40,186 nucleotides of DNA from a virus (IMGVR_UViG_2728369554_000009:1-40186), one strand, 5' to 3'. Counted from the stretch's first letter, positions 5,100 to 40,186 are shown. Numbers and translations are program-made. The notes: generated by a model not told the origin, from the sequence alone.

Positions 5100-5684
5100 T
5101 TATTGTTTGTTTTTTTCGTTCTGGCTGATGACAAATTCAATGTAACTTTCGATCTTTGCCTTCTCTGTTTCGGGTAACAATGCGTAGCGCGAGCGGTCAT
5201 AGTTGATAGTCGCAGGGTCGTGCGGGTGAATCAGTAATTCATAGCCGTGACGCCCGAATGCGGATGCAACATTCTCCAGGGTGGAAATGGAAACGCTGAC
5301 CTCATTGTTTAACAGGCGGCTGATTGTCACCTGGGCGACGCCGGATGCGCGGTGAAGTTTTCCCTGTGTTGAAAGGTAGCGGCTTTCGCTCATCCAGCGT
5401 TCCAGGTTGTGAGCCGCCAGCTGACCAATGTCGCTTGGGCCGACAGGCTGAAAACCTTCCTGAGAAAGCGAGCGATCGATATCAAGCCAGTTACGGGGTT
5501 TATTGGCGGCAGCTTCAATTTTTCGCGCAACCTGGTCGCCGATAACCTTCTTGCCAAGAGCCCAGCGGTTTACCAGATTTGCCTGAGTTCCAAGTTTTTC
5601 TGCCATCCGCGTCTGAACACCATTGAATTCACGGTCGATCAAGTCGTTGAGATTTTGCCTGCGGACGTCCTGGATACTTTTCAT
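5100..5684 (-). CDS. Prophage repressor with two HTH domains and no S24/LexA-like cleavage domain
   Basis: 194 aa. There are two XRE-type HTH segments (TRMAEKLGTQANLVNRWALGKK and LHRASGVAQVTISRLLNN). It is divergent from the Cro-like gene across a three-operator region. No Ala-Gly/Ser-Lys autocleavage module is visible. Confidence 0.75.
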   Translation of the reverse strand: MKSIQDVRRQNLNDLIDREFNGVQTRMAEKLGTQANLVNRWALGKKVIGDQVARKIEAAANKPRNWLDIDRSLSQEGFQPVGPSDIGQLAAHNLERWMSESRYLSTQGKLHRASGVAQVTISRLLNNEVSVSISTLENVASAFGRHGYELLIHPHDPATINYDRSRYALLPETEKAKIESYIEFVISQNEKNKQ

Positions 5685-8056: not shown

Positions 8057-8093
8057 TACCAGCGCGATAGCGCATTTTTTTACGCCTCAATAG

Positions 8094-8170
8094 TTACCCA
8101 ATGGGTAACAAAATGTTCTTAGATCTATTGATTTCGTGTCTTATGTGGTTTTTAATTACCTTAGAGGTAA
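8094..8170 (+). promoter_or_regulatory. Promoter region bracketed by two perfect operators (8094-8108 and 8156-8170)
   Basis: Sites are ttacccaatgggtaa and ttaccttagaggtaa. A candidate promoter has -35 TTGATT, a 17-nt spacer and -10 TTTAAT. The second operator covers the Shine-Dalgarno (gagg) of the next gene. Confidence 0.55.
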
Positions 8171-8173
8171 ATC

Positions 8174-8518
8174 ATGAGAAAACAGATACAGGCTCTTGGT
8201 CGACTCAAAACAGGCCAGATGAACAAAACAGAATCTGCGTATTGCCAGCACCTTGAGCTGCGTAAACGTGCAGGGGAAATCGCCTGGTATCGATTCGAGG
8301 GTATCAAGCTGCGGTTAGCTGACAACACGTTCTATACGCCAGATTTCGCTGTGATGCTCGCCACCGGAGAGATGGAACTGCACGAAGTGAAAGGTTTCTG
8401 GACCGACGACGCCAGGGTGAAAACCAAAGTCGCCGCAGATCAGTATCCGTTCCGAATCATCGGGGTAACGGTTAAACCAAAGAAAGCAGGTGGCGGCTGG
8501 AACATCGAAGAGTTCTGA
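8174..8518 (+). CDS. DUF1064-like protein (nuclease or resolvase-like fold)
   Basis: 114 aa. TESAYCQHLELRKRAGEIAWYRFEGIKLRLADNTFYTPDFAV...HEVKG resembles the DUF1064 pattern from memory. Confidence 0.55.
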   Translation: MRKQIQALGRLKTGQMNKTESAYCQHLELRKRAGEIAWYRFEGIKLRLADNTFYTPDFAVMLATGEMELHEVKGFWTDDARVKTKVAADQYPFRIIGVTVKPKKAGGGWNIEEF

Positions 8519-8579
8519 ATCGACGATCTTTTTAGTTATCAATGTAATCAATAAGTTATGTGGATAAGCGAGGGTAAAG

Positions 8580-9563
8580 ATGGAAAGTAATATCAAAGGG
8601 TTAGTTGCCGCCGGGCATGAGATGGCTTCGGAACTGAACGCAGAATGTGGTGCCGTTGATATGCGCAGTGTGGCAAAGCTGATCAGCGATTTGGCAACGC
8701 AACTGGAAGTGCAACTGGTGCGTGCTAATGCGCTGGCAGCGGAGAATGCTGGGCTTAAGGCCTTCAAAACCGCCGTTTATCAGCAGATGGGCGTCGGATG
8801 TGATGCTCCTGAATTCTCCATTACGACAGGTTTGAGTAACTTACGTCGTTTTGCTGACACACTCCACGCCATTGAACGTGAGTTCTTTACCAAAGAGCTA
8901 CCTGATGAAGAGCACGAAGGCGAAACATTCAATGAATGTCCACTTAGCTGGGGAATGAGCGTCGAACAGTACGTTTCCGAGTTTCGCAAATGCCTGGCTG
9001 AAGTGCGGGCGCAGGGCGTGGATGCTGCTATAGAAGCTGCAAAAAATCTGGTGGCCCAAGAATATGAGTATAAGGATTTCAAAGCGGCGCAGAGTGATTG
9101 CTGTATGCACCCTGGTTCAGACCTAGTAGGGAAGGTTGAAATGACTGAGTGGTTAGTTGACTTTGCTGCCCAGCTTCGCAAAGGAGGCAACCAGGCTGCC
9201 GAATCCAATCGCGGTAATGAGTGGACTGGCAATCCTGATATTGATAACGCCATCATCATGCTCGACCGCATAGATACGCTGGAAAATTGCGATGATGACC
9301 GTATTGAGGCTGTTAAGGCTGTTTTGCGTAGACTGGCTGGCAACTATCCGGTAATTCCGGATGGTTGGATAAGCTGTAGTGAGCGAATGCCGAAAGAAAC
9401 GGGTGACATTATTGTTGTTTCGGATGGCATTGTAATGTCCGGGATTTCTTATTCTCGTCGTGACGGGTTCTATATAGCCGCATTGGAGTACGACGACGAT
9501 GAGCCAATTGGCGGTGTAACCCACTGGATGCCGCTACCGAAACCGCCGCAGGAGGTGAAGTGA
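8580..9563 (+). CDS. Hypothetical early protein with a DUF551-like C-terminus
   Basis: 327 aa. The C-terminal DGWISCSERMPKETGDIIVV...GVTHWMPLPKPP is the DUF551 signature. Confidence 0.55.
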   Translation: MESNIKGLVAAGHEMASELNAECGAVDMRSVAKLISDLATQLEVQLVRANALAAENAGLKAFKTAVYQQMGVGCDAPEFSITTGLSNLRRFADTLHAIEREFFTKELPDEEHEGETFNECPLSWGMSVEQYVSEFRKCLAEVRAQGVDAAIEAAKNLVAQEYEYKDFKAAQSDCCMHPGSDLVGKVEMTEWLVDFAAQLRKGGNQAAESNRGNEWTGNPDIDNAIIMLDRIDTLENCDDDRIEAVKAVLRRLAGNYPVIPDGWISCSERMPKETGDIIVVSDGIVMSGISYSRRDGFYIAALEYDDDEPIGGVTHWMPLPKPPQEVK

Positions 9564-9847
9564 TGGACTCCTTCGCGAAATATACGATTATTGACTGGAT
9601 AGCATTCCTTCAGGTTTTGCTCATCTGGTTTTATATGGCTTACAGGAGTGGACAGTGGATTGTCAGTGTAGCCTGTAGCAAGGGATGGCGTTGGTGGAAC
9701 CGAAAGAATAAAAAAGCACTGGCCTTGGATTCGTTTTACGAAGCATTCAATCTTAACAGTCTTCAGCCTGGTTCTGTCGTTGTAGTCACCACTCAAAGCG
9801 GAATGACGATACAAATTCACAAGCCAAAGGAGGAAGGTCGTGGCTAA
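9563..9847 (+). CDS. Small membrane protein (94 aa)
   Basis: The ATG lies 6 nt after GGAGGTG. Hydrophobic segment: IIDWIAFLQVLLIWFYMAY. Confidence 0.5.
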   Translation: MDSFAKYTIIDWIAFLQVLLIWFYMAYRSGQWIVSVACSKGWRWWNRKNKKALALDSFYEAFNLNSLQPGSVVVVTTQSGMTIQIHKPKEEGRG

Positions 9848-10121
9848 CCTGCAACTTGCCGTAAAAGGTGAATACTTCAATGCCATGATTCGCGGAGAGA
9901 AAACGGAAGAGTATCGCTTGTGTAATGACTACTGGAAAAAGCGAATTATGTTCCGGGAGTATGACCGCCTGATTATCACAAGGGGATATCCGAAGCGCGA
10001 CGACTTCAGTCGCAGAATTGACGTCCCGTATGAAGGGTATGAAATCAAGACAATCACACATCCGCACTTCGGCGATAAACCGGTAAAGGTGTTCGCGATA
10101 AAGGTAAATATTGATGGCTAA
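9840..10121 (+). CDS. ASCH-like domain protein
   Basis: GTG start after AAGGAGGAAGG. LAVKGEYFNAMIRGEKTEEYRL...RLIITRGY resembles ASCH/DUF3850. Confidence 0.55.
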   Translation: MANLQLAVKGEYFNAMIRGEKTEEYRLCNDYWKKRIMFREYDRLIITRGYPKRDDFSRRIDVPYEGYEIKTITHPHFGDKPVKVFAIKVNIDG

Positions 10122-10452
10122 ATCAGCAGCAGAGCGCAAAGCCGCTCAGAGAGCCAGACAAGCTGCATCTGGTGTGCGTAAGCTGGAGATTGTGCTTGAT
10201 GCTCAGGAAATTGAAATGCTTGAGCGGAACTGCGCCGCCCGGCGCCCTGGTCGCGATCCCTATGAAATGGCCGAGTACATCGCGCTGCTGATCCGCCAGG
10301 ATGATGCACGTGTGCGCGGGCGTATAAAATCGATCAGCAGAAAACTTTGCGGTAAGTGCGGCGAGAGAGTTCCCGTTAATTCATGCCCGTGTAATGGTGA
10401 CTCGCAATGCTGGGTGACTAAAGGCTGGCATGAAACGAAATTAATAGTGTGA
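10114..10452 (+). CDS. Cys-rich basic protein and possible late regulator. It is the last gene before the terminator and terminase genes.
   Basis: 112 aa. Cysteine cluster: CGKCGERVPVNSCPCNGDSQC. The function is inferred from position only. Confidence 0.45.
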   Translation: MAKSAAERKAAQRARQAASGVRKLEIVLDAQEIEMLERNCAARRPGRDPYEMAEYIALLIRQDDARVRGRIKSISRKLCGKCGERVPVNSCPCNGDSQCWVTKGWHETKLIV

Positions 10453-10460
10453 CATGTCAC
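10449..10460. repeat. 12-bp palindrome GTGACATGTCAC, copy 1
   Basis: Exact sequence. It overlaps the stop of the 10114-10452 gene. Confidence 0.8.
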
Positions 10461-10501
10461 GAGTAGATTATGCATGATGAATTTGATGGGTTTTGAATAC
10501 T

Positions 10502-10527
10502 GCCGCCAACTATGGCGGCTTTATTTT
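10502..10527 (+). terminator. Intrinsic terminator between the early-right genes and the terminase genes
   Basis: Hairpin gccgcca-acta-tggcggc followed by tttatttt. Confidence 0.75.
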
Positions 10528-10530
10528 GCA

Positions 10531-10566
10531 TGGTACTATTACCACAACGGTAACTATTACCACGGT
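10531..10566 (+). repeat. Two direct repeats GGTA(A)CTATTACCAC spaced 18 bp apart, just upstream of terS
   Basis: tggtactattaccac / ggtaactattaccac. Each holds the GGTA/TACC half-site words in reversed order. Confidence 0.6.
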
Positions 10567-10570
10567 GGTT

Positions 10571-11167
10571 ATGATGCCTGCTGAACCTAAAACCTATAAA
10601 CGCAAATCAACGCAATTTAAGCCACTAACAGCAATGCAGGAGGCTTATTGCCAGTCATACATCAAAACGCCTGAAAACCAGACTCAGGCAGCGATTAACG
10701 CAGGATTCTCCCCAAATACAGCGGCAGTTAAAGCCAGTGTCATGATGCGCGATGAACGCATTCAAAAACGGATTGCCGAGTTGATGGAGGAGCGCAACAA
10801 ACGAATGCGCGTCAGTGCTGATTACGTTCTCATGCGCCTGGTGGAGATCGACCAGATGGACGTGATCGACATCCTCAACGACGATGGGAGCCTTAAGCCA
10901 ATCCGCGAGTGGCCGAAAATCTGGCGCACTACGCTTAGCGGCTTTGATCTGTCATCGACCATCATGAACATGAACGAGGATTCGATAGAGACAATCCTCA
11001 AAAAAATTAAATGGCCTGACAAGGTGAAGAACCTCGAACTGATTGGTAAGCACGTCGACGTCAAAGCATTCAAAGAACGCCTGGATGTTAATGTGAATGT
11101 GACAATTGCTGATCGCATAGCAGCAGCCAGGAAGCGACTCAAAGAACGTCAGGATGGTAATCAGTGA
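10571..11167 (+). CDS. terS: Terminase small subunit
   Basis: The start was moved to the ATG at 10571 (MMPAEPK). QEAYCQSYIKTPENQTQAAINAGFSPNTAAVKASVMMRDERIQKRI is the Terminase_2-type HTH segment. Confidence 0.75.
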   Translation: MMPAEPKTYKRKSTQFKPLTAMQEAYCQSYIKTPENQTQAAINAGFSPNTAAVKASVMMRDERIQKRIAELMEERNKRMRVSADYVLMRLVEIDQMDVIDILNDDGSLKPIREWPKIWRTTLSGFDLSSTIMNMNEDSIETILKKIKWPDKVKNLELIGKHVDVKAFKERLDVNVNVTIADRIAAARKRLKERQDGNQ

Positions 11168-12639
11168 CAGATACAGTGTTATCTCCTGAAGAGCAGTTGA
11201 TCGAGGATATTGCAGGGTTTACTCACGATCCGCTTGGTTATGCCCTCTATGCGTTCCCGTGGGGGGAAGAGGGGACTGAACTGGCACATGCTACTGGCCC
11301 ACGTCAGTGGCAGGCTGATGCGTTCCGAGAGATACGTGATCACCTGCAGAATCCAGAGACGCGCTATCAGCCGCTTATGCTGGCACGCGCTTCTGGTCAC
11401 GGTATTGGTAAATCCGCATTCATCTCAATGCTGATCAACTGGGGCATGTCCACTTGCGAGGATTGTAAGGTCGTGGTGACCGCCAACACCGACAACCAGC
11501 TACGAACGAAGACCTGGCCGGAAATTATCAAGTGGTCGAACCTTGCTATCACGGAAGACTGGTTTACCTGTACCGCTACCGCGATGTACAGCAATGACCC
11601 TGGGCACGACAAGCGGTGGCGTGCTGACGCAATACCCTGGTCTGAGCACAACACTGAGGCGTTCGCCGGACTACACAACGAGCGCAAACGCATCATCGTG
11701 GTGTTTGATGAAGCGTCGAACATTGCGGATCTGGTGTGGGAAGTTGCTGAGGGTGCGCTTACGGACGAAGACACTGAGATTATCTGGGTGGCGTTCGGAA
11801 ACCCGACGCGTAATACCGGACGTTTCCGTGAATGTTTCCGCAAGTATAAACACCGCTGGAAAACTGCGCAGATTGACAGTCGGACGGTGGAAGGTACCAA
11901 CAAACAGCAGTTGCAGAAATGGGTTGATGACTACGGGGAAGACAGCGACTTCGTTAAAATCCGTGTGCGTGGCATATTCCCTGATGCATCTGAATTGCAG
12001 TTTATCCCTACCGGTCTTACTGACGAGGCAATGAAACGGGTGGTAACCGCTGCGCAGGTTGCACATGCTCCGGTGATAATCGGCGTTGACCCGGCATACT
12101 CCGGCGTTGATGACGCTGTGATATACCTGCGGCAGGGGCTACACAGTAAGGTGCTGTGGACTGGCAACAAGACTACCGACGATCTGATTATGGCGAAGCG
12201 TATCGCTGACTTTGAAGACCAGTATCAGGCTGACGCGGTGTTCATCGACTTCGGTTACGGAACCGGTTTGAAGTCAATCGGTGACGGCTGGGGTCGTACA
12301 TGGCAACTTGTTCCGTTCGGTGGCGCGTCTACTGACCCGCAGATGCTTAACAAGCGTGGGGAGATGTTCAACTCATGTAAGACATGGCTGAGGCTGGGCG
12401 GCATGCTGGATGACCAGGAAACTGCAGACGACCTGTCGGCGGCAGAGTACAAAGTTCGCGTGGACGGTAAAATCGTTATCGAACCGAAGGAGGATATCAA
12501 GGAGCGGCTTGGGCGTTCGCCGGGTAAAGGCGATGCGCTACTGCTGACGTTTGCGTTCCCTGTGTCGAAGCGTCTGCGAATTCCCGGTCAGCAGAACCAG
12601 CAAGGCAAGGCCATCACAGATTACGATCCCTATGCTTAA
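11164..12639 (+). CDS. terL: Terminase large subunit
   Basis: 491 aa. GTG start overlapping the terS stop. It has a Walker-A-like ARASGHGIGKS and a later VVFDEAS (Walker B) motif. Confidence 0.9.
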   Translation: MTDTVLSPEEQLIEDIAGFTHDPLGYALYAFPWGEEGTELAHATGPRQWQADAFREIRDHLQNPETRYQPLMLARASGHGIGKSAFISMLINWGMSTCEDCKVVVTANTDNQLRTKTWPEIIKWSNLAITEDWFTCTATAMYSNDPGHDKRWRADAIPWSEHNTEAFAGLHNERKRIIVVFDEASNIADLVWEVAEGALTDEDTEIIWVAFGNPTRNTGRFRECFRKYKHRWKTAQIDSRTVEGTNKQQLQKWVDDYGEDSDFVKIRVRGIFPDASELQFIPTGLTDEAMKRVVTAAQVAHAPVIIGVDPAYSGVDDAVIYLRQGLHSKVLWTGNKTTDDLIMAKRIADFEDQYQADAVFIDFGYGTGLKSIGDGWGRTWQLVPFGGASTDPQMLNKRGEMFNSCKTWLRLGGMLDDQETADDLSAAEYKVRVDGKIVIEPKEDIKERLGRSPGKGDALLLTFAFPVSKRLRIPGQQNQQGKAITDYDPYA

Positions 12640-28853: not shown

Positions 28854-28874
28854 TCAATATTTATTGGAGTTCTT

Positions 28875-29402
28875 TCAATGGCTGTTTATGGCTTCTAAAG
28901 AAGCTTCTGCACTTATCGGCAAAGCAATAGTATCCTTGTTAGATGTGCTATTGCTTTCCAGAACTATGGAAATCCAATCCTCTTGGTTTTCATTAATTGT
29001 GCTGACAGCCATGATAGCATTCAAATCATTTTTATATATTTCTGATCGAATAAGACCTTTCCTGAATAATTTAGTTAAGTTTTCAGCTATCGACATCGCA
29101 CGAATGCTAACTTTACTAAGCTCAATTGCGTCACTACCTGCGACTTTGGCGTGTTGAGAAAGAGCCATCAAAGCTATATGTGAAAATGTTTCTTCTTTTG
29201 AAAAACCGTTACTTAAAGACATGAGTGATACACCAGCTCCGTATGGGGTGAGTTTATATCCTGATACATTCAGTGCATGCTCTACAAAGGTAAGATCATC
29301 AGTTGTAGAAACATGCATATCGTTACTTTTTTGTTTTTTTGCAATAAATAAAAAAACAAAATTAATAATCACGATGCCGACGATGATTAAGAAAACTTCC
29401 AT
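28875..29402 (-). CDS. Membrane-anchored orphan protein (175 aa): N-terminal transmembrane helix plus a ~145-aa soluble domain
   Basis: MEVFLIIVGIVIINFVFLFIAKKQK signal-anchor. GAGGA Shine-Dalgarno. It has its own operator-bearing promoter. The DNA is visibly AT-rich compared with its flanks. Confidence 0.6.
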   Translation of the reverse strand: MEVFLIIVGIVIINFVFLFIAKKQKSNDMHVSTTDDLTFVEHALNVSGYKLTPYGAGVSLMSLSNGFSKEETFSHIALMALSQHAKVAGSDAIELSKVSIRAMSIAENLTKLFRKGLIRSEIYKNDLNAIMAVSTINENQEDWISIVLESNSTSNKDTIALPISAEASLEAINSH

Positions 29403-29422
29403 TGCTTTTCCTCACAATAACA

Positions 29423-29437
29423 TTACCTTAAAGGTAA
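29423..29437. promoter_or_regulatory. Perfect operator 21 bp upstream of the membrane-protein ATG
   Basis: ttaccttaaaggtaa. Confidence 0.55.
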
Positions 29438-29462
29438 TATTTTGTGCTAATGTGATCAAGTG

Positions 29463-29861
29463 TTAAGTGTATACCTCCTGCTGTTCAGTCGTGATTTTAC
29501 CCGGCAACACCTTTTTAGCTTTGCGCGGGTTAACCACATGGCCTTTAGTCCAGTACTCGTAGAGCACATCATCACACTCTTCCTGATACTGGATTACCTT
29601 ATCGCGGATTTCAGGGCGGACTTTGTTTGGACTGATGCTGTTCAACCAAGCTGCCAATTTTCGTAAAGCCATACAAATCATGGCTTGCACCCCTCCGGCA
29701 GAAGGTATGGTGATTTCCACCATACCCTTCGAGAAGCGTTGAGAAATCTTCTTATGTTGAGATTTCCAGTCTAGACCCATTCCCTCAACGATAGGTTTCA
29801 TTGGGGTGTACGGTTCGCCGTTGTGATTGACAACATAAAGTTCTACGCCGTGGAATGGCAC
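29463..29861 (-). CDS. P22 Ant N-terminal-domain-like protein (132 aa, GTG start)
   Basis: PFHGVELYVVNHNGEPYTPMKPIVEGMGLDWKSQHKKI matches the P22_AR N-terminal pattern as I recall it. The long Ant C-terminal part is missing. Confidence 0.6.
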   Translation of the reverse strand: MPFHGVELYVVNHNGEPYTPMKPIVEGMGLDWKSQHKKISQRFSKGMVEITIPSAGGVQAMICMALRKLAAWLNSISPNKVRPEIRDKVIQYQEECDDVLYEYWTKGHVVNPRKAKKVLPGKITTEQQEVYT

Positions 29862-30008
29862 GTTGATAGTAGTGACAAGTTTGAAACATCGCTGGTTGTA
29901 AGCCAGCAGATGCTCGTTATTTTACATCGCGGTACAATTTCTCGCTGGTGGCTCTTTTATACACCTTAACCAAATATGGTTGATTTTGATATTTATCTTC
30001 GTCTATTA

Positions 30009-30265
30009 TTACCTTTTCGGTAAATTTACATCGCACTCCTCTTGTGCCATAGTAATCGGGCACTGGCAAAATCCAGTGCCGGGATTGGTCTCCCGGATTA
30101 CTACAGAGGCACATATGCCGCATAAGCGGTTTTTTTATGTGTAAAGCGCACCTATTCTATGGTGGGCTGTGTGGGGGCACCGAAAGGTGCGCCGGGTTCC
30201 TTTGTAGCCGGTAAGACCAACTCTGCACAGTTCACCACCATCTGATTGGTCTCAGCGGTGGTGAT
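30009..30265 (+). repeat. Outer inverted repeat, arm A (operator plus structured leader)
   Basis: It is the reverse complement of 32938-33197. The first 95 nt are identical. After that there is patchy identity with paired substitutions. Confidence 0.85.
30024..30136 (+). ncRNA. Terminated leader sRNA, copy A, possibly C4-like
   Basis: An outer stem tagtaatc/gattacta (30050-30057 / 30096-30103) encloses hairpins ggcactgg-caaaat-ccagtgcc and ggga-ttggtc-tccc. Hairpin ccgc-ataa-gcgg plus T7 follows. The loop ttggtct is complementary to agaccaa in the downstream leader. Confidence 0.5.
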
Positions 30266-30290
30266 TAACCTAACTACAAAGGTGATCGCC

Positions 30291-30983
30291 ATGAATACCA
30301 AACCTTCCATCTTTTCCTTTGAGTCATCCTGCCAGATCCGTATGTTCATGATTGACGGAGAACCTTGGTTTGTCACCAAAGATGTGTGCAATGCTTTGAA
30401 TATTGATGTTACACAAGCGAGAAAACTTGATAAAAAAGGCTGGAACAAAAAGGGGCTGTATTCAATACAGACCCCTGGTGGAATACAAGAACTATCCATC
30501 GTTTCAGAATCAGGTCTCTACATCCTTATTCTGCGTTGCAAAGAGGCAATGACTGAGGGAACGAGAGCATTCAGATTTCTTGAATGGGTTACAGGTGAGG
30601 TTCTTCCTCAGATCCGCCGCACCGGAAGTTACATTAAAAACTCGCTCCCGCAGGAAGAACGCATAAAGATGGTTGCCGACCAGGTAGCCAACGCCACGGC
30701 GTCAGCAGTAATGCAGGCGATGAAGATAGAGAACAAAACCTACAGTGCCCCGCTGAAGCCCGGCTACCGCAGCCTGATTCATTCTCCGTCTGGTGTTCTC
30801 GGCCTGACGGAGAACTCACTGCTGATGAATCTGCTGAACCAGTTACAGGAAGACGGGCACGATGTATCGGGCGCGGCGGCGGAGCTGACCACCATGTTCT
30901 GCTACATCGTCGGTGTGAGCAAATGCCTGCGTGATATCCAGACGCACGCGGAATACATCAACGACAAGGCAGGGTTCTTCTGA
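30291..30983 (+). CDS. Antirepressor 1: Bro-N domain plus the shared C-terminal module
   Basis: The start MNTKPSIFSFE lies behind AGGTGA. QIRMFMIDGEPWFVTKDVCNALNI is Bro-N-like. The last ~81 aa are nearly identical to those of the 32255-32911 product. Confidence 0.75.
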   Translation: MNTKPSIFSFESSCQIRMFMIDGEPWFVTKDVCNALNIDVTQARKLDKKGWNKKGLYSIQTPGGIQELSIVSESGLYILILRCKEAMTEGTRAFRFLEWVTGEVLPQIRRTGSYIKNSLPQEERIKMVADQVANATASAVMQAMKIENKTYSAPLKPGYRSLIHSPSGVLGLTENSLLMNLLNQLQEDGHDVSGAAAELTTMFCYIVGVSKCLRDIQTHAEYINDKAGFF

Positions 30984-31008
30984 CAGAACGGCGGCACAGG
31001 GACGTGCA
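30741..31008 (+). repeat. Inner inverted repeat, arm A (antirepressor C-terminal module plus about 25 nt of 3-prime UTR)
   Basis: About 8 mismatches over about 245 coding nt against the reverse complement of 32230-32497, from manual alignment. Confidence 0.85.
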
Positions 31009-31021
31009 AAACGAAACTAGC

Positions 31022-31033
31022 GTGACATGTCAC
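31022..31033. repeat. 12-bp palindrome GTGACATGTCAC, copy 3
   Basis: Exact sequence directly abutting the terminator at 31034-31058. Confidence 0.8.
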
Positions 31034-31058
31034 AGGCCGCTTTCGCGGCCTTGTTTTT
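31034..31058 (+). terminator. Intrinsic terminator after antirepressor 1
   Basis: Hairpin aggccgc-tttc-gcggcct followed by tgttttt. Confidence 0.75.
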
Positions 31059-31218
31059 AACGAATGCCACCGCCACCCGGGCGGGAATCCGCAGAACGCC
31101 CACCGCAGCGGGAGCCGTCAGCAGCAGTGTCGCTGTCGTGCTGACAACGACCGGCAAAGGCCTGAGTTGAAGCTACCAGAGACAACAAAACGAACAGTGC
31201 AGCAAATGCTTTTTTCAT
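31057..31218 (-). CDS. Small secreted peptide (53 aa) with an Excalibur-like D-x-D...DG-x-x-C segment
   Basis: The signal peptide MKKAFAALFVLLSLVASTQAFA is followed by GRCQHDSDTAADGSRCGG. A candidate promoter of its own has TTGACG, a 16-17-nt spacer and TATAGA. It is GC-rich, unlike its neighbours. Confidence 0.45.
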   Translation of the reverse strand: MKKAFAALFVLLSLVASTQAFAGRCQHDSDTAADGSRCGGRSADSRPGGGGIR

Positions 31219-31299
31219 TGTGAAATTTCCATCTATAAACCACCTCAATGTGGCGTCAATGAGTGTAGCACTGACTTTTGTTTCGTCCATAAAAAACTA

Positions 31300-31812
31300 C
31301 TATGCAGGCTTTTTGGATTTGTACGAATAATCCCACGGATAAACATTTCTACTAAGTGGAGCTGTATTCGTTCGTTCATGAAATAATTTTGTGAAATTCA
31401 ATACGGAATCCATCCAAACTTTTGCGTTAGCTTTGGTGTGTGCGGGCGGGTCCCAATAAGCTAGTAAGGCTGCATCTCTTATTTCATTGACTGCATATAT
31501 GAGATATGCGTTACTGGTTGGTTTTGGCCTGTAATTTCCTTGTTCATCAATCAATCCATATGACCACTCATCCCAACACTGTTCAGTACATGAGTATGAA
31601 TATGATGCATATTCACCAATATTGACATGAACCTTTCTGAGATGGAAGCCTAATACTTCCTCTGGTCTTTCAAAAAGAGTATCTTTTCCCAGATCAGGAT
31701 GATGACCATGACGCCAGTGTTGTTTAAAAGCATCTTTTAGCGAAATCAGAAAGTCATCAGTTTTAAACTCACCAGTAGGTATAACCTTCCCGCTATACTC
31801 ACTCAAAAACAT
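31300..31812 (-). CDS. YafO-like toxin-family protein (170 aa)
   Basis: LKDAFKQHWRHGHHPDLGKDTLFERPEEVLGFHLRKVHVNIGE and NAYLIYAVNEIRDAALLAYWDPPAH parallel YafO segments (..PDIFGRDALYDD..VAHIHLAN.. and ..AHLVYCQG..AWLLIAIL.PEPH), which I am recalling from memory. AT-rich DNA. Confidence 0.5.
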   Translation of the reverse strand: MFLSEYSGKVIPTGEFKTDDFLISLKDAFKQHWRHGHHPDLGKDTLFERPEEVLGFHLRKVHVNIGEYASYSYSCTEQCWDEWSYGLIDEQGNYRPKPTSNAYLIYAVNEIRDAALLAYWDPPAHTKANAKVWMDSVLNFTKLFHERTNTAPLSRNVYPWDYSYKSKKPA

Positions 31813-32125
31813 CGAATTCCTCTTCCTTCATATGCGTTTCTAATGAGTTAAGCTGGCGGAAAGATATCTCTTTTGATTCTGCAGATGAGAGCTTTTTTAT
31901 CCGCTTTATATTCTTTGTGATAGGAATAGACATTGTATGCACATCAGCGGATGCTCTTGGCTTTGTGCTGATAAAAATATGGCGCAATGCCGCATTTTCA
32001 CTATTGAACGAGCCAATAGCTGATTTACGTGCTACAACCTTACCAGTAAAAATACGACTCTTGCTACGCTTTGCATGAGTTCCGCTTCTTACCGGACCTC
32101 TCATCACGAATCCAAGTTTTGTCAT
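31799..32125 (-). CDS. Upstream partner of the YafO-like gene (108 aa, basic N-terminus, acidic tail EEEFDVFE). Putative antitoxin of an unrecognised family.
   Basis: It overlaps the downstream gene by 14 nt. A promoter with a perfect operator lies 43 bp upstream. Confidence 0.5.
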   Translation of the reverse strand: MTKLGFVMRGPVRSGTHAKRSKSRIFTGKVVARKSAIGSFNSENAALRHIFISTKPRASADVHTMSIPITKNIKRIKKLSSAESKEISFRQLNSLETHMKEEEFDVFE

Positions 32126-32167
32126 CTTTAATCTCCGGTAAGTTACAGGTATAAAATAAAAACAGGT

Positions 32168-32182
32168 TTACCTTTAAGGTAA
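32168..32182. promoter_or_regulatory. Perfect operator upstream of the two-gene operon
   Basis: ttacctttaaggtaa. Confidence 0.55.
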
Positions 32183-32229
32183 TAGTACGCTATTCACCCC
32201 CGGTCTGCAATCTGTACAGAATTATTTAA

Positions 32230-32497
32230 AGGCACATCCCTGTGCCACCGCCCGTCAGAAGAACCCTGCCTTGTCGTTGATGTACTCCGCGTGGGTCTGG
32301 ATATCACGCAGGCATTTGCTCACACCGACGATGTAGCAGAACATGGTGGTCAGCTCCGCCGCCGCGCCCGATACGTCGTGCCCGTCGTCCTGTAACTGGT
32401 TCAGCAGATTCATCAGCAGTGAGTTCTCCGTCAGGCCGAGAACACCAGACGGCGAATGAATCAGGCTGCGGTAGCCGGGCTTCAGTGGGGCGCTGTA
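32230..32497 (-). repeat. Inner inverted repeat, arm B
   Basis: Reverse complement of 30741-31008. Confidence 0.85.
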
Positions 32498-32911
32498 TTC
32501 TTTTTTGTCTTCCAGCTTGATCGCCTCCATTATGGCGGGCATGAAGCCTGACAAGACCTTCTCCACTTTTGTTTCTTGTTGTCTTAAACGTTTCTCGCAT
32601 TCAATGAAGTAGCGTCGCACCTGGCGACCTTTTTCGTTACGCTCGACCATCGCCAGCTCTTTGGCTGTATCAAGGGTGAGGTGGTACTCTTTGCGGTTGT
32701 GGCCGCCTCTACCAGATGTTTGCTTTCCCAAATTGGAAAGCAAAATATAGTCTTGATTTTCAATGAATTCGTATTCTGATATGCGATTTGTAATCCATGC
32801 TGCAAACACCTTTTTAACACCTAAAAAAGCGTGCAGATCGCGGGCATTACAAAGTAGGGCTGTTTCGTTAGATATAGTGCCGTTGAATACGGGGATGAGT
32901 TGAGCGTTCAT
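32255..32911 (-). CDS. Antirepressor 2: AntA-type N-terminal domain plus the shared C-terminal module
   Basis: [37 protein letters not shown]...[29 protein letters not shown] is the AntA/AntB pattern. Confidence 0.75.
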
Positions 32912-33069
32912 GATGGCGTCTCCACTTAGCGAATTACATCACCACCGCTGAGACCAATCAGATGGTGGTGAACTGAACGGAGTTGGTCTTACCGGCCTAA
33001 GTGGTACCGGCGTCCTTTCGGACCCCCATTCAGCCCACCATAATTCTGGCATGACTGTGCTATACGCAT

Positions 33070-33182
33070 AAAAAAACCACGTCTGGCGTGGTATGCGCCA
33101 CTTAGTAATCCGGGAGACCAATCCCGGCACTGGATTTTGCCAGTGCCCGATTACTATGGCACAAGAGGAGTGCGATGTAAAT
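33070..33182 (-). ncRNA. Terminated leader sRNA, copy B
   Basis: Its body (33103-33156) is identical to copy A. The terminator stem differs (ccacg-ccaga-cgtgg plus T7), so the structure is kept while the sequence changed. Confidence 0.5.
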
Positions 33183-33197
33183 TTACCGAAAAGGTAA
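33183..33197. promoter_or_regulatory. Perfect operator at the head of leader B. Its mirror at the head of leader A is 30009-30023.
   Basis: ttaccgaaaaggtaa. Confidence 0.55.
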
Positions 33198-33228
33198 ATA
33201 TAAGCACTCCACTTGGTAATTGCAAACC

Positions 33229-33486
33229 TTATCTGGTTTGTTTTCGTAATTGTTCGGCACAATAGTCGAGATGTGTTTGCAGATCCTGCATAGACATCTG
33301 TGAGCTGGTGACGTAGTTAATCAGTGCAGTCAGTTCGGCAAGTGGGCCATCGACATTAAATCCATCCTTATCGAGATCCCGGAGTAATTTCATCAAGTGC
33401 GATCCCTCCACCAGTGACCTGACGCCTCCCGGCGTGTGAATCCTTTCGGTAAATCCGTCTTCCAGTGGATAGTGATACTGCTGCAT
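33229..33486 (-). CDS. Mini-antirepressor (85 aa) made only of a diverged copy of the shared C-terminal module
   Basis: The start MQQYHYPLEDG lies behind GGAGAAG. HTPGGVRSLVEGSHLMKLLRDLDKDGFNVDGPLAELTALINYV aligns with [44 protein letters not shown]. The longer 126-aa ORF would include the LexA box. Confidence 0.6.
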   Translation of the reverse strand: MQQYHYPLEDGFTERIHTPGGVRSLVEGSHLMKLLRDLDKDGFNVDGPLAELTALINYVTSSQMSMQDLQTHLDYCAEQLRKQTR

Positions 33487-33507
33487 CTTATCTTCTCCAT
33501 GCAATAA

Positions 33508-33523
33508 CTGTATATTTATACAG
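33508..33523. promoter_or_regulatory. LexA (SOS) box CTGTATATTTATACAG
   Basis: A perfect CTGT-N8-ACAG with an AT-only spacer, 22 bp upstream of the mini-antirepressor ATG. Confidence 0.8.
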
Positions 33524-33562
33524 TAGCAAATAATTTGTTTGCTATCCAGCACGTTTTGCAAA

Positions 33563-33577
33563 TTACCTGAAAGGTAA
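33563..33577. promoter_or_regulatory. Perfect operator in the divergent region between the mini-antirepressor and the tailspike gene
   Basis: ttacctgaaaggtaa, with the same spacer as the site at 13804. Confidence 0.55.
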
Positions 33578-33681
33578 TATCTATTCGTATTTACAGCCTT
33601 TCTATCCATATGTGGTTTTCCAGGTAATAGAATAACCAGATATGCGGCGCAACGGGTGCTGCGACTATCTGGAGATTTAAC

Positions 33682-36600
33682 ATGACGGTCTCAACCGAAG
33701 TTGACCACAACGAATACACCGGTAACGGCGTTACGACATCGTTTCCGTATACTTTTCGAATTTTCAGAAAATCAGACCTGGTTGTTCAGGTGTCTGACCT
33801 GAACGGAAACGTAACAGAATTGGTTCTGGATACCGGTTATACGGTAACTGGGGCGGGCACTTATAGTGGCGGTTCTGTGGTTCTTCCGTCTCCGCTTGCT
33901 ACTGGATGGCGAATTACGATAGATCGTGTGCTTGATGTAGTGCAGGAGACAGACCTTCGCAATCAGGGAAAATTTTTCCCCGAAGTGCATGAAGATGCCT
34001 TTGACTACCTGACGATGCTGATCCAGCAATGTTTTGGGTGGTTCAGACGTGCATTGATGAAACCATCTTTGCTTGCAAAATATTACGATGCAAAGCAAAA
34101 CAAAATTTCTAACCTTGCAGATCCATCATTTGAGCAGGACGCTGTAAATAATCGCTCAATGCGTAATTATGTCGATGCTGCAATCGCCGGGGTTGTTGGT
34201 GGTTTTGGTTGGTTTATTCAGTATGGTTCTGGGGCTGTGTACCGAACGTTCCAGGATAAAATGCGTGATGCTATTAGCCCCAAAGATTTTGGAGCTGTTG
34301 GTGATGGTATAAATGACGATTCCACTGCAATAAGCGCGTGCCTTGAAGCCTCATCTCCAGGTTATAAAATTGACGGATTAGGGCTTACTTTTAAAGTATC
34401 AACTCTTCCGGATGTCAGTCGATTTAAAAATGCTCGTTTTTTATTTGAGAGAATACCGGGCCAGCCTCTTTTTTATGCTTCTGAAGATTTTATCCAGGGA
34501 GAGTTATTTAAAATTACAGATACACCGTGGTACAACGCCTGGACGCAGGATAAAACGTTTGTATATGACAATGTCATCTATGCGCCTTTTATGGCTGGAG
34601 ACCGCCATGGTGTAAATAACCTCCATGTTGCATGGGTTCGCTCAGGAGATGACGGGAAGACCTGGACAACGCCGGAATGGCTTACAGATTTACATGAAAA
34701 CTATCCCACAGTTAACTATCACTGCATGAGTATGGGGGTTGTCAGAAATCGCCTTTTTGCTGTAATTGAGACGCGGACCGTGAGCGGAAATAAACTGCAG
34801 GTTGCAGAGTTGTGGGATCGCCCAATGAGTCGCAGCCTTCGCGTTTATGGTGGTATAACGAAAGCAGCAAATCAGCAAGTCGCTTATATTCGCATTACTG
34901 ATCACGGATTATTTGCTGGTGATTTTGTCAACTTCTCAAACTCTGGTGTTACAGGTGTTACCGGGAATATGACGGTGACTACTGTTATTGATAAAAATAC
35001 TTTTACAGTTACGACGCAAAATACCCAGGATGTGGATCAGAATAACGAGGGTAGATACTGGAGTTTTGGTACATCATTTCACTCGTCACCATGGAGAAAA
35101 ACCAGTCTTGGAACTATTCCTTCTTTTGTTGACGGAAGCACTCCTGTTACTGAGATTCACAGTTTTGCGACGATTAGCGATAACAGTTTTGCTGTTGGCT
35201 ACCATAATGGTGATATTGGTCCACGCGAGCTTGGGATACTCTATTTCTCTGATGCTTTCGGTTCTCCTGGTAGCTTTATTCGCAGACGCATACCTGCAGA
35301 ATATGAGGCGAATGCATCTGAGCCATGTGTAAAATATTATGATGGCATTCTGTATCTGACGACCAGGGGGACATTAAGTACTCAACCCGGTAGTTCATTG
35401 CACAGAAGCTCTGATTTAGGTACATCATGGAATTCTCTTCGCTTCCCAAATAATGTTCATCACTCAAACCTTCCTTTTGCCAAAGTTGGCGATGAGCTGA
35501 TTATTTTTGGCAGTGAGCGCGCATTTGGTGAGTGGGAAGGAGGAGAACCTGATAACCGTTATGCAGGAAATTATCCAAGAACATTTATGACCAGAGTTAA
35601 CGTCAATGAGTGGAGTCTGGATAATGTAGAGTGGGTTAATGTTACTGATCAGATTTATCAGGGCGGAATAGTTAACTCTGCGGTTGGTGTTGGTTCAGTT
35701 TGTATCAAAGACAACTGGCTGTACTACATTTTCGGTGGGGAAGACTTTCTAAACCCATGGAGCATAGGGGATAACAACAGAAAATATCCTTATGTTCACG
35801 ATGGTCACCCGGCTGATTTATATTGTTTCAGGGTGAAAATCAAACAGGAAGAATTTGTTTCAAGGGATTTTGTCTACGGAGCCACTCCTAACAGAACGCT
35901 TCCTACTTTTATGTCGACGTCAGGCGTGAGGACGGTTCCTGTACCCGTTGATTTCACAGATGATGTTGCCGTCCAGTCACTGACTGTCCATGCAGGTACA
36001 TCAGGACAAGTTCGCGCGGAAGTCAAACTTGAGGGTAATTACGCCATTATTGCGAAGAAAGTACCGTCTGATGATGTTACCGCTCAGAGATTAATCGTTA
36101 GCGGCGGTGAAACAACGTCTTCAGCAGATGGTGCAATGATAACGTTGCATGGTTCCGGAAGCAGTACTCCACGTCGCGCGGTATATAACGCACTCGAACA
36201 TCTTTTTGAGAACGGAGATGTTAAACCTTATCTTGATAATGTAAATGCTCTTGGTGGTCCGGGAAACAGGTTCTCGACAGTTTATCTTGGCTCCAATCCT
36301 GTGGTTACCAGTGACGGAACATTAAAGACAGAGCCGGTCTCTCCTGACGAAGCATTGCTGGATGCCTGGGGTGACGTCAGGTATATCGCTTATAAATGGC
36401 TGAACGCTGTCGCTATAAAGGGGGAAGAAGGGGCGAGGATACATCATGGTGTAATCGCGCAGCAACTTCGTGATGTTCTTATTTCTCACGGACTCATGGA
36501 AGAAGAAAGCACAACATGCCGCTATGCCTTTCTTTGCTATGACGATTATCCCGCAGTATATGATGACGTCATTACTGGCCAAAGGGAAATGCCGCTGACT

Positions 36601-36801
36601 GATAATGAAGGGAGCATCATTGTTGATGAGGATGATAATCCAGTGATGGTAATGGAAGACATCATTGAGCGCGTTGAAATAACGCCAGCAGGATCTAGAT
36701 GGGGGGTCAGACCTGATCTCTTATTCTATATCGAGGCAGCATGGCAGCGCAGAGAAATGGATAAGATAAAAGAGCGGATTCAGTCTCTGGAAGAACGTTA
36801 A
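33682..36801 (+). CDS. Tailspike: conserved N-terminal particle-binding domain, Asp-box (sialidase-like) central domain, and a C-terminal intramolecular chaperone (peptidase S74-type) domain
   Basis: 1039 aa. Asp-boxes are SGDDGKTW and SSDLGTSW. The GAVGDGINDDSTAI motif is present. The C-terminal VVTSDGTLKTE...HHGVIAQQL matches the S-D-x-x-x-K autocleavage region, with Ser877 at 36310-36312. Confidence 0.85.
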   Translation: MTVSTEVDHNEYTGNGVTTSFPYTFRIFRKSDLVVQVSDLNGNVTELVLDTGYTVTGAGTYSGGSVVLPSPLATGWRITIDRVLDVVQETDLRNQGKFFPEVHEDAFDYLTMLIQQCFGWFRRALMKPSLLAKYYDAKQNKISNLADPSFEQDAVNNRSMRNYVDAAIAGVVGGFGWFIQYGSGAVYRTFQDKMRDAISPKDFGAVGDGINDDSTAISACLEASSPGYKIDGLGLTFKVSTLPDVSRFKNARFLFERIPGQPLFYASEDFIQGELFKITDTPWYNAWTQDKTFVYDNVIYAPFMAGDRHGVNNLHVAWVRSGDDGKTWTTPEWLTDLHENYPTVNYHCMSMGVVRNRLFAVIETRTVSGNKLQVAELWDRPMSRSLRVYGGITKAANQQVAYIRITDHGLFAGDFVNFSNSGVTGVTGNMTVTTVIDKNTFTVTTQNTQDVDQNNEGRYWSFGTSFHSSPWRKTSLGTIPSFVDGSTPVTEIHSFATISDNSFAVGYHNGDIGPRELGILYFSDAFGSPGSFIRRRIPAEYEANASEPCVKYYDGILYLTTRGTLSTQPGSSLHRSSDLGTSWNSLRFPNNVHHSNLPFAKVGDELIIFGSERAFGEWEGGEPDNRYAGNYPRTFMTRVNVNEWSLDNVEWVNVTDQIYQGGIVNSAVGVGSVCIKDNWLYYIFGGEDFLNPWSIGDNNRKYPYVHDGHPADLYCFRVKIKQEEFVSRDFVYGATPNRTLPTFMSTSGVRTVPVPVDFTDDVAVQSLTVHAGTSGQVRAEVKLEGNYAIIAKKVPSDDVTAQRLIVSGGETTSSADGAMITLHGSGSSTPRRAVYNALEHLFENGDVKPYLDNVNALGGPGNRFSTVYLGSNPVVTSDGTLKTEPVSPDEALLDAWGDVRYIAYKWLNAVAIKGEEGARIHHGVIAQQLRDVLISHGLMEEESTTCRYAFLCYDDYPAVYDDVITGQREMPLTDNEGSIIVDEDDNPVMVMEDIIERVEITPAGSRWGVRPDLLFYIEAAWQRREMDKIKERIQSLEER

Positions 36802-39115: not shown

Positions 39116-39655
39116 TTAGTTAAACCAGCTATCTGATTTATTCTCTTCTGCTTTACCCACGCTTTTCATCAGATCGCGACCGCCTTCAGTCATATTTCTG
39201 TTTGCGTCAGCTTCAGATTGCACCACATCGGTTTGCGCAGCTTTGTGCTTCAGTTCCTGATCGATAAATTCGTTTTCGCGCTTGACGCGGGCTTCTTCTT
39301 TCGCCAGCGCCAGTTTTTGTTTCTGAATCTCTAAGCTACGTAGCTCATCTTCATAACTTTGATCGCGTTTTTTGTCCGCAGTGGCTTCGGCGTCCAGTTT
39401 ATCCTGACGAGCTTTCTTATTCGCTGCTGCCGTTGCCGCTCTTTTATTAGCCGCGGCCTGGGCGTTTGCGCGACGTTGCTTCTCTTGCTGGATTTCCCTG
39501 TTGCGCTCCGCGACCCATTCGTCATGCTGCCTTTGCTCTTCATTTTTACCTTGCTGTTCCGCTTCTGCGACAGCCGAGAGTTGATCCTGCAATGATGAGG
39601 CGATAGCCGGATAGCTTAAGGAGGCTAAGATGGCGCAAAGAAAAACTTTCTTCAT
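39116..39655 (-). CDS. yfgI: Secreted Q/K/A/E-rich coiled-coil protein, YfgI-like host gene
   Basis: 179 aa with the signal peptide MKKVFLCAILASLSYPAIA. The sequence and its pairing with the upstream lipoprotein gene match my recollection of E. coli yfgH-yfgI. Confidence 0.6.
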   Translation of the reverse strand: MKKVFLCAILASLSYPAIASSLQDQLSAVAEAEQQGKNEEQRQHDEWVAERNREIQQEKQRRANAQAAANKRAATAAANKKARQDKLDAEATADKKRDQSYEDELRSLEIQKQKLALAKEEARVKRENEFIDQELKHKAAQTDVVQSEADANRNMTEGGRDLMKSVGKAEENKSDSWFN

Positions 39656-39670
39656 GACTCCTCCTGATTA

Positions 39671-40186
39671 TTAGCTCTTTTCAGGACATTTGGTATTTGG
39701 CTGAATACGCGTTTCGTTATACGTCGTGGTAATAACAACGGCTAAACCTGTCGTAAACTGGCACTCTTTACCCACCTGGGTGGAGGTATACACTTTGGTG
39801 CCTTCCTTATATGTTAAAGAAACACCTTCCACTAAGGTTTTATCATTCACCATAGAACCCGCTGCCGCGCCTACAGCTCCGCCGCCAACTGCACCTGCCG
39901 TCGTTCCGGAATTGCTGCCAGACCCGACGTTGTGGCCGATAACACCGCCAGCGACAGCGCCAATAAGCGCGCCGAAGGCTTGTGCGTTCCGTTTATTTTG
40001 GGCGTTGTCTACGGCAACTTTTGCGGGAAGAATGGAAATAATATTAACGGTTTTAGTTTCTTGTTTGGTATTCAGTTGATCGGTTTGATAAACATCGGCG
40101 GCATGATCATCAGCATTTGACTGGCATCCTGCCAGAGTGAATGACGCTAACATTGCCACAGGCAGAAGACATTTTTTAAATTTCAT
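39671..40186 (-). CDS. yfgH: Glycine-zipper outer-membrane lipoprotein, YfgH-like host gene
   Basis: 171 aa with an LAGC lipobox and the glycine zipper GALIGAVAGGVIGHNVGSG..GAVGGGAVGAAAG. Confidence 0.6.
   Translation of the reverse strand: MKFKKCLLPVAMLASFTLAGCQSNADDHAADVYQTDQLNTKQETKTVNIISILPAKVAVDNAQNKRNAQAFGALIGAVAGGVIGHNVGSGSNSGTTAGAVGGGAVGAAAGSMVNDKTLVEGVSLTYKEGTKVYTSTQVGKECQFTTGLAVVITTTYNETRIQPNTKCPEKS

Follow-up and report, generated by a model that had tools for sequence, protein, structure and literature searches.

The sequence analysed here is a viral stretch of 40,186 nucleotides (nt) (IMGVR_UViG_2728369554_000009:1-40186; the window). Judging from its sequence, the element is an epsilon15-like (Uetakevirus) Escherichia coli prophage with a K1 endosialidase tailspike. 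This work concerns the block at 28864-33681, between the ejection genes and the tailspike gene; epsilon15-like phages (Uetakevirus: phiV10, TL-2011b, phiv142-3) match its flanks and several of its segments. The interval is the classical immI position of P22, and the ant genes of epsilon15 and SPC32H are also placed between the ejection genes and the tailspike. The block contains two large antirepressor genes facing each other, ant1 and ant2, each behind an RNA leader, with a cargo operon and a peptide gene between them and a small antirepressor gene on the tailspike side (Table 1). An initial annotation, made from the sequence, had described it as a nested palindrome without virion genes. Comparison with Pfam and PHROG agrees, giving no match to a virion protein family for any open reading frame (ORF) of 28864-33681, and the ORFs listed in that annotation are all present. 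None of 8 proteins of the block was matched in NCBIfam. The abrupt composition steps noted at the outset are also found, from G+C fractions of 0.31-0.42 to 0.57-0.59 between segments: 0.36-0.42 in the cargo, 0.57-0.59 in the C-terminal modules and the peptide gene, and 0.31-0.40 in the gene for a 175-amino-acid (aa) protein.

Table 1. Positions in the window of the genes, RNAs and control sites of the block, and of rep
Feature	Position	Strand	Details
Rep, helix-turn-helix repressor	5100-5684	-	PDB 5D50_A, E 1e-41 over 190 residues; Pfam HTH_3
175-aa gene, function unassigned (phrog_21690)	28875-29402	-	Rep operator 29423-29437 in promoter region
Truncated P22-Ant N-domain gene, 132 aa	29463-29861	-	Pfam P22_AR_N, E 5e-44
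Leader-1 promoter	30009-30053	+	Rep operator TTACCTTTTCGGTAA 30009-30023; TTTACA 30025-30030; 17-nt spacer; CATAGT 30048-30053; same in second copy
IsrK-type small RNA 1	30060-30136	+	Rfam RF01394, 74.7 bits (gathering score 50)
C4-type antisense RNA 1	30155-30242	+	Rfam RF01695, 78.6 bits (gathering score 45)
ant1, Bro-N + SPC32H-Ant-like C-terminal module	30291-30983	+	Pfam Bro-N, E 2e-13
Terminator hairpin between convergent ant1 and peptide genes	31034-31051	+	
53-aa peptide gene, signal-peptide-like N-terminus (phrog_14503)	31057-31218	-	
170-aa YafO-like cargo gene	31300-31812	-	
108-aa cargo gene	31799-32125	-	14-nt overlap with 170-aa gene
Cargo promoter module	32168-32246	-	Hairpin 32231-32246; -35 TTGCAG 32205-32210; -10 TACTAT 32182-32187; operator 32168-32182
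ant2, AntA + Ant-like C-terminal module	32255-32911	-	Pfam AntA, E 4e-26
C4-type antisense RNA 2	32961-33045	-	Rfam RF01695, 61.2 bits (gathering score 45)
IsrK-type small RNA 2	33070-33146	-	Rfam RF01394, 67.7 bits (gathering score 50)
Leader-2 promoter	33153-33181	-	Rep operator 33183-33197
Ant, SPC32H-type, 85 aa	33229-33486	-	PDB 5D50_E, E 4e-47 over residues 2-84

Both nested pairs of inverted repeats were recovered by a repeat finder. The inner arms (30728-30984 and 32254-32510) are identical at 245 of 257 positions (95.3%) without gaps, so the repeat is real and its identity somewhat lower than the initial estimate of about 97% over about 245 nt. The outer arms (30004-30265 and 32938-33202) agree in 228 of 269 aligned columns (84.8%), 11 of the columns being gaps, and are made of a 100-nt core at 98% identity plus shorter pieces at 80-95%. 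This patchiness arises because the divergent patches are the specificity elements of the leader RNAs described below. Chance repeats were rejected, since length and identity are far above chance expectation, and so was an assembly artefact of the window, the same architecture recurring in finished genomes. The inverted repeats are the common parts (leader and C-terminal domain) of two paralogous cassettes placed tail to tail, and not a purpose-built palindrome.

The small Ant is 88% identical to that of SPC32H (tblastn). A perfect LexA box of the form CTGT-N8-ACAG (CTGTATATTTATACAG, 33508-33523) is found 22 nt upstream of its ATG, and a Rep operator (33563-33577) also precedes the gene; the same layout of operator and LexA box is present upstream of epsilon15 gp19 and SPC32H ant. 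The LexA box had been seen in the initial annotation, where the gene was taken for a mini-antirepressor flanking the block; it is instead the gene of SPC32H Ant and forms the centre of the switch. Work by Kim and Ryu in 2013 is said to have placed SPC32H ant under LexA control. According to passages of reviews citing the primary work (PMC9638917), Rep sits on DNA as a tetramer that is broken up by tetrameric Ant, and passages of a preprint liken the Ant mechanism to trapping the repressor in a non-functional conformation, many such antirepressors being LexA-regulated.

The products of ant1 and ant2 join an N-terminal domain to an Ant-like C-terminal module (C-module). Residues 149-225 of the ant1 product align with PDB 5D50_E (E 9e-14), covering nearly the whole of Ant (residues 3-79), and the C-termini of both proteins are identical at 80 of 86 residues. 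Within the family the C-module is found with Bro-N, AntA, the P22-Ant N-domain (P22_AR_N; TL-2011b) and in annotated ORF6N genes, and it is nearly invariant (97.6-100% at the protein level) across these four unrelated N-domain families. The AntA-coding part of ant2 (32522-32911) is about 91% identical in DNA to antirepressor genes of Shiga toxin (Stx)-converting and other lambdoid phages; as ant2 matches those phages only in this part, exchange of N-domains across phage families is indicated. Next to ant1, the product of the truncated P22-Ant N-domain gene aligns with residues 8-156 of the intact TL-2011b Ant and has no Ant-like C-module, and the orthologue of this gene is called a pseudogene with missing C-terminus by the Prokaryotic Genome Annotation Pipeline (PGAP). 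Compared with the intact P22-type Ant of TL-2011b, it is on the other strand with respect to the virion genes, and it looks like a scar left by a previous rearrangement at this joint.

The motif TTACC-N5-GGTAA is matched 15 times in the window, exactly in 12 cases and with a single mismatch in 3, where 0.8 matches would be expected; none of 100 shuffles reached this number, and the version with a 6-nt spacer has no match in the window. Five matches flank rep (4966, 5028, 5740, 5788 and 6125) and five more lie in the early region (8094, 8156, 10539, 10557 and 13804). The remaining five are at promoters of the block: 29423 (175-aa gene), 30009 and 33183 (leaders, where the motif adjoins the -35 hexamer in both), 32168 (cargo) and 33563 (small ant). 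The GenBank record of epsilon15 labels the motif upstream of gp19 as a repressor-binding site, and the sequence is the same in SPC32H. Because of its enrichment around rep and its annotation in epsilon15, we take the motif as the putative Rep operator. Its scatter over the genome recalls the many C1 operators of P1.

Both operator-plus-leader copies of the initial annotation are present, and the leaders, anonymous there, each consist of an IsrK-type small RNA followed by a C4-type antisense RNA. In both leaders promoter-like hexamers place the IsrK start site at its first base, and an intrinsic terminator closes IsrK (30117-30136 in copy 1, 33076-33092 in copy 2). C4 RNA 1 exposes a loop a (CCTTTGTAG, 30199-30207) and a linker b (AGACCAA, 30214-30220). 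Their targets are in the ant1 mRNA: target b (TTGGTCT) at 30246-30252 and target a (CTACAAAGG) at 30274-30282, the latter overlying the Shine-Dalgarno sequence 8 nt before the ATG. IsrK 1 contains copies of both targets (TTGGTCT at 30085-30091 and CTACAGAGG at 30101-30109). In the second leader, loop a of C4 (CCACTTAG, 32997-33004, minus strand) has its target (CTAAGTGG, 32922-32929) at the ant2 ribosome-binding site. The two leaders of the window have site b in common and differ at site a, and their C4 stems differ by compensatory changes.

The same relations were followed in a survey of about 85-100 leaders from 94 related loci. Co-variation was counted by script, as MAFFT alignment of the leader types misregistered loop and target alleles. 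The C4 hairpin-2 loop has four alleles (CCTTTGTAG, CCTTTTAG, CCACTTAG and CCTACTAG), each exactly complementary to the ribosome-binding site of its own antirepressor gene, and the single-stranded C4 linker has three (AGACCAA, ACGCCAA and GTGCAAA), each with an exact complement just 3' of C4. We measured specificity by exact-complement matrices of loop and linker: cognate complementarity is 7-9 nt exact (4 x 3 alleles) and non-cognate just 3-5 nt. Whole-sequence RNAduplex runs of C4 against target gave about equal energies for cognate and non-cognate pairs, the stems dominating. Of the 84 parsed leaders, 83 repeat the target b sequence in the hairpin-2 loop of IsrK, and for each of the four alleles the IsrK spacer that precedes the terminator reads as target a, one G-U wobble being present in the commonest allele. 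The one leader that departs from target b is recombinant and lies on an IMG/VR contig (L022); its IsrK allele ATTGGCGT is mismatched to the C4 linker AGACCAA, which looks like a crossover between IsrK and C4. The same contig carries three large antirepressor cassettes at 6600-11230. The co-variation shows IsrK, C4 and the two target sites to be pairing partners; the direction of the C4 and IsrK effects would be the one known in P1 and Gifsy-1. A 28-codon ATG ORF (30159-30245) lies wholly inside C4 RNA 1 and ends 45 nt before the ant1 ATG at 30291. It may correspond to Gifsy-1 'orf45', of which the nucleotide and not the amino-acid sequence is conserved.

We defined cargo as the DNA from the antirepressor stop codon to the next landmark, mostly the 53-aa peptide gene. 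Under this definition at least 11 unrelated cargo clusters occur in 65 loci, and the only recognisable domains are YafO-like, DUF2335 and DUF4760. Conserved arms around variable cargo had been set beforehand as a test of the initial annotation, and this is the pattern observed. The DNA upstream of ten cargo clusters was compared: about 88 nt (hairpin, promoter and operator) are conserved in front of nine, eight of these with the operator motif exact, and in the clusters of the 88-nt type variability begins directly past the operator. Cluster 6 has a different upstream segment and a still exact operator, the operator of cluster 7 carries one mismatch, and cluster 10 has the same variant plus an exact site farther downstream. 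The promoter hexamers of the window (TTGCAG and TACTAT) are separated by 17 nt. Wherever the 53-aa peptide gene follows a cargo type, it is conserved at 98-100%. It is the conserved far boundary of the slot, so that of the central cargo proposed at the outset the two-gene operon stands and the peptide gene does not.

The cargo pair of the window was assigned to phrog_1651 and phrog_5933. The 170-aa product matches Pfam YafO_toxin (PF13957) with E 7e-4 at 20.1 bits, below the cut-off of 25. PGAP names its orthologue a YafO family toxin, an NCBIfam scan gave no match, and no known antitoxin family of Pfam or NCBIfam matched the 108-aa ORF. PADLOC gave no hits for the cargo of the window, the peptide, the 175-aa gene and ten cargo proteins of relatives, so the label 'defence island' is unsupported. 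A second variable slot separates small ant from the leader next to it. In the window this slot is empty (33198-33228); relatives carry there a 242-aa gene or another YafO-like gene pair on the opposite strand (L005 7199-7927; L006 6696-7424; L008 4411-5422; L094 3393-4332).

Parts of the block are present in 1,259 of 5,426 finished E. coli genomes, none of which contains the whole block at full coverage (best match 92%). From IMG/VR, 80 further loci were retrieved via the small Ant, and their modules were mapped by script. Finished genomes with the same scaffold (L004-L007) differ in cargo. Of the 37 loci spanning from the ejection gene to the tailspike, a sample in which relatives of the window are over-represented, 16 contain a single large cassette and 21 contain a pair. 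A large cassette is lacking in epsilon15 and SPC32H; phiV10 has one, the window two. An ant1-type gene followed by YafO cargo is found in 57 genomes (98.9% identity), and in the one locus examined (L008) it is the sole, tailspike-side cassette. In 35 genomes the peptide gene comes after the AntA gene, which is ejection-side in both loci examined (L009 and L010). One and the same cassette type is thus seen on either side. The junctions of the window itself were found in 11 and 10 genomes. Matches to an 'inverted junction' were rejected as proof of inversion at the inner arms, since most of them come from prophages with one cassette or from swaps of cassettes.

Both orientations of the central block, anticipated by the initial annotation, were seen between strains in assembled genomes. 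Two related loci (L017 and L065) differ by a 3,260-nt inversion (98.4% identity) with ends in the leader repeats and collinear flanks. The finished genome of MS 196-1 carries window positions 30009-32254 at 98.5%, inverted relative to both flanks, which match at 97%. The clean flip between L017 and L065 involves the whole two-cassette block between the leader repeats rather than 31009-32229 alone, the interval proposed at the outset. In the two-cassette loci with the peptide gene, the orientation of the window prevails (18 of 21, against 3 of 21 in the opposite one), and closely related genomes appear to share orientation. The exact L017 block in its L017 orientation was found in none of the 5,426 finished genomes at a coverage of at least 80%. 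No recombinase domain was found by Pfam or PHROG in any ORF of 28864-33681, the only integrase being at 1-1251. As there is no invertase, the inversions look like homologous recombination rather than a programmed switch. N-domains, cargo and orientation are all reshuffled at the repeats, in keeping with the swapping and inversion by homologous recombination suggested at the outset, which would be the likely pathway. What had been held to speak against the initial annotation is the opposite of what we found: the cargo varies, inversion isoforms exist, and the repeats stand at 95.3% and 84.8%.

We suggest that the block is, with good probability, a second immunity (immI-type) region, in which two RNA-gated antirepressor cassettes enclose a repressor-controlled cargo slot; the immI-like character given to it initially is supported. 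All three antirepressors would act on Rep. The small Ant, behind its LexA box, would trigger induction upon DNA damage. The large ones, an exchangeable N-domain fused to an Ant-like C-domain, would be transcribed from the Rep-operator promoter through a leader comprising IsrK, C4 and the two C4 targets. By analogy with P1/P7, C4 would mask the ribosome-binding site and block translation. Since IsrK holds copies of both targets, it should titrate C4 as a decoy and free translation, in agreement with the trans-activation by IsrK known from Gifsy-1. On this view a lysogen would keep the large antirepressors off, and they would be produced only under strong leader transcription, when Rep is lost or a new cell is infected. 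The slot begins directly behind the stop codon of one cassette, which in the window is that on the tailspike side, and runs in the order hairpin, promoter, putative Rep operator, cargo, 53-aa gene and terminator, with Rep probably repressing the cargo promoter. The repeats would have no dedicated function and would serve as substrates for general homologous recombination, by which, over evolutionary time, N-domains may be swapped between positions, cargo exchanged and the block occasionally flipped.

Several points weigh against an immI-type region of this kind. The C-domains are just about 40% identical to Ant; their binding to Rep is predicted from this similarity, but other repressors could be their targets, or their role could be limited to oligomerisation. 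A cargo promoter repressed by Rep would be unusual, because prophage accessory genes are often expressed in the lysogen, and the operator might repress only weakly. The 48-nt gap between C4 and the ant1 ATG contains no ORF, so an equivalent of icd, which P1 has there, is absent. The coupled-ORF part of the Gifsy-1 scheme is not transferable, because the 28-codon ORF stops 45 nt before the ATG. As to the mirror isoforms, 2 of the 3 come from draft or metagenome assemblies, in which segments flanked by inverted repeats can be mis-oriented, and MS 196-1 is not a simple one-step inversion of the window locus, because its ejection-side cassette differs from ant2. The avoidance of identical C4 alleles within a locus is just suggestive, because the loci are related and non-independent: 0 of 17 within-locus leader pairs (from 15 loci with at least 2 leaders) are identical at both sites, against an expectation of 0.18 per pair.

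Other explanations were considered. A gene block enclosed by nested inverted repeats, with both orientations among related prophages, is what one would see if the palindrome were a programmed invertible switch of the Gin, Cin, Hin or shufflon type, toggling the cargo or one antirepressor clonally. We regard this as very improbable: no recombinase or invertase gene lies in or beside the block, and the arms are long coding and regulatory sequences rather than short crossover sites. Inversion should leave expression unaltered, because the promoter and operator travel with the cargo and the antirepressors keep their leaders. The skew of 18 against 3, with an orientation common to close relatives, fits rare events and not frequent switching. 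The doubled arrangement could instead be a recent accident of neutral mosaicism, with one cassette redundant or decaying and the pairing unselected. The truncated third antirepressor gene (P22_AR_N) adjoining ant1 would fit such an accident, as would the abundance of one-cassette prophages (16 of 37 spanning loci, and the 57 genomes with the ant1-type gene alone) and the lack of any large cassette in canonical members of the family (epsilon15, SPC32H). Against it, both ORFs are intact, the Rfam scores of both leaders are undiminished, as is the exact complementarity of each C4 to its cognate target, two-cassette loci exist in many cassette combinations, and the absence of co-resident pairs sharing both C4 sites hints at selection for pairs that do not cross-react. 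We consider this origin quite unlikely.

The alternative that ant1 and ant2 are aimed at the repressors of other prophages, or act through their DNA-binding-type N-domains with the C-module mainly for oligomerisation, is unlikely but carries some weight. The C-module is much farther from SPC32H Ant than the small Ant is (about 40% against 88% identity), and the AntA N-domain is close to Stx-phage antirepressors at about 91% DNA identity, with only that part of the gene matching. According to passages of a report on Salmonella (PMC3121763), trans-acting antirepressors coordinate several prophages, and two more antirepressors would bring little gain on one target where an SOS-linked Ant is already present. 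However, the alignment with the C-module covers almost all of Ant, the Rep-binding protein (residues 3-79). The near invariance of the module under four swapped N-domain families is expected if it has to match the phage's own repressor, and the operator that governs the cassettes is the Rep operator found in the rest of the phage.

Every component of the immI-type region proposed here is of a known kind: SPC32H Ant and Rep, P1/P7 c4, Gifsy-1 IsrK, the Bro-N, AntA and P22 N-domains, and a slot for accessory genes. P22 immI (mnt, arc, ant and sar RNA, next to sieA) has an antirepressor under antisense-RNA control. The block has the same genome position and a P22-Ant N-domain gene; this gene is truncated, though, and the antisense RNA is of C4 type, not sar. 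A tblastn search with the Arc-like protein of TL-2011b found no Arc homologue in the block, with a best E of 0.13 elsewhere in the window. The block is not P22 immI, because Arc and Mnt are absent and Ant is truncated. In TL-2011b, the peptide gene and a YafO-like cargo are enclosed by two convergent antirepressor genes that share this C-module, but the ejection-side gene is an arc-controlled P22-type Ant without IsrK-C4 leader, so that only the inner repeat is present. PhiV10 has one leader plus Bro-N cassette and a small ant. In the records of TL-2011b and phiV10 the RNAs are unannotated.

The Rep-Ant-LexA switch of SPC32H (Kim and Ryu 2013; PDB 5D50) is shared as to Ant orthologue, position, operator and LexA box, and Rep homologue. 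In SPC32H and epsilon15 the small ant is the only ant gene at the locus, whereas the window adds two large genes with leaders and the cargo slot. In P1/P7 immI a c4 RNA lies in the antirepressor leader, with two short target sites, allelic specificity and a C1 operator (PMC8201110; Citron and Schuster 1990). The window likewise has a C4-family RNA in the leader, two target sites, one of them over the ribosome-binding site, allelic specificity sites and a probable operator of the primary repressor, Rep, at the promoter. It differs in having IsrK before C4, other antirepressor families, two cassettes with different site-a alleles, and an integrated, podovirus-like prophage instead of a plasmid prophage. 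Without icd, the block is no straightforward member of P1 immI.

In Gifsy-1 part of the transcription passes the IsrK terminator and yields an antirepressor mRNA that is inactive; the short IsrK pairs with the segment between IsrK and the gene and activates translation in trans, a pairing proven by compensatory mutations (Hershko-Shalev et al. 2016, PMC4825925). As in Gifsy-1 isrK-orf45-anrP, a terminator-bearing IsrK stands at the 5' end of the antirepressor transcript of the window and is complementary to the segment between IsrK and the antirepressor gene. We read this segment as C4 and regard IsrK as copying the two C4 targets. The block is not a plain Gifsy-1 module, because it has no coupled upstream ORF, whose stop codon overlaps the start in Gifsy-1; besides, it is epsilon15-like and not lambdoid. 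Our literature search found no description of the tail-to-tail double cassette or its mirror forms, of an Ant-like C-module common to four N-domain families, of three-way allele co-variation between IsrK, C4 and the ribosome-binding site, or of an operator-gated cargo promoter with many alternative cargos.

We further propose, tentatively and as possible rather than probable, that the IsrK-C4-target triad is a modular, allele-coded RNA lock and that it is joined in epsilon15-like prophages to a so far undescribed repressor-gated expression slot. In the lock, IsrK would mimic both C4 targets, and the alleles (four at a, three at b) would assort combinatorially, so that each cassette may be gated privately within a prophage or a cell with several prophages. 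In the slot, cargo would be switched on with the antirepressors at induction or infection, making these genes candidates for counter-defence or competition between phages instead of accessory functions expressed in the lysogen.

As to the rest of the prophage, the integrase opens the window and lysis genes lie near its end. The tailspike (33682-36801) joins an epsilon15-type N-terminal adaptor to a complete K1 endosialidase, with End_N_terminal, beta-propeller, beta-barrel and tailspike domains and an intramolecular chaperone. The full K1 endosialidase points therefore to a K1-capsule-specific temperate epsilon15-like phage. In relatives, other enzymes (e.g. glycosyl hydrolase 28) are found on the same tailspike N-terminus. 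Close to the integrase is a gene for an MT-A70-family DNA methyltransferase (1446-2108). The prophage end, past the lysis genes (39116-40186), holds two likely genes for lysogenic conversion: a DUF5384 gene, and one for a glycine-zipper protein that matches TraT weakly, at a score under the Pfam cut-off. The 175-aa gene, kept in loci L004-L007, had no Pfam, NCBIfam or PADLOC match.

The conserved leaders, C-domain, promoter-operator and peptide gene would make the block a modular recombination scaffold, in which they are the joints for the exchange of N-domains and cargo. For the search for new phage accessory functions its slot offers a defined site, with at least 11 gene sets, none of them matching a known defence family. 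Control of induction in these prophages has some medical relevance, given the K1 endosialidase tailspike and relatives in sequence type 131 (ST131), avian pathogenic E. coli (APEC) and a cerebrospinal fluid (CSF) isolate. If our interpretation is true, a small temperate phage would set three antirepressors against a single repressor, with the SOS response controlling one of them and an RNA threshold device the other two. P1 c4 and Gifsy-1 IsrK, which the literature we found treats separately, would then be halves of one switch whose specificity can be read from sequence.

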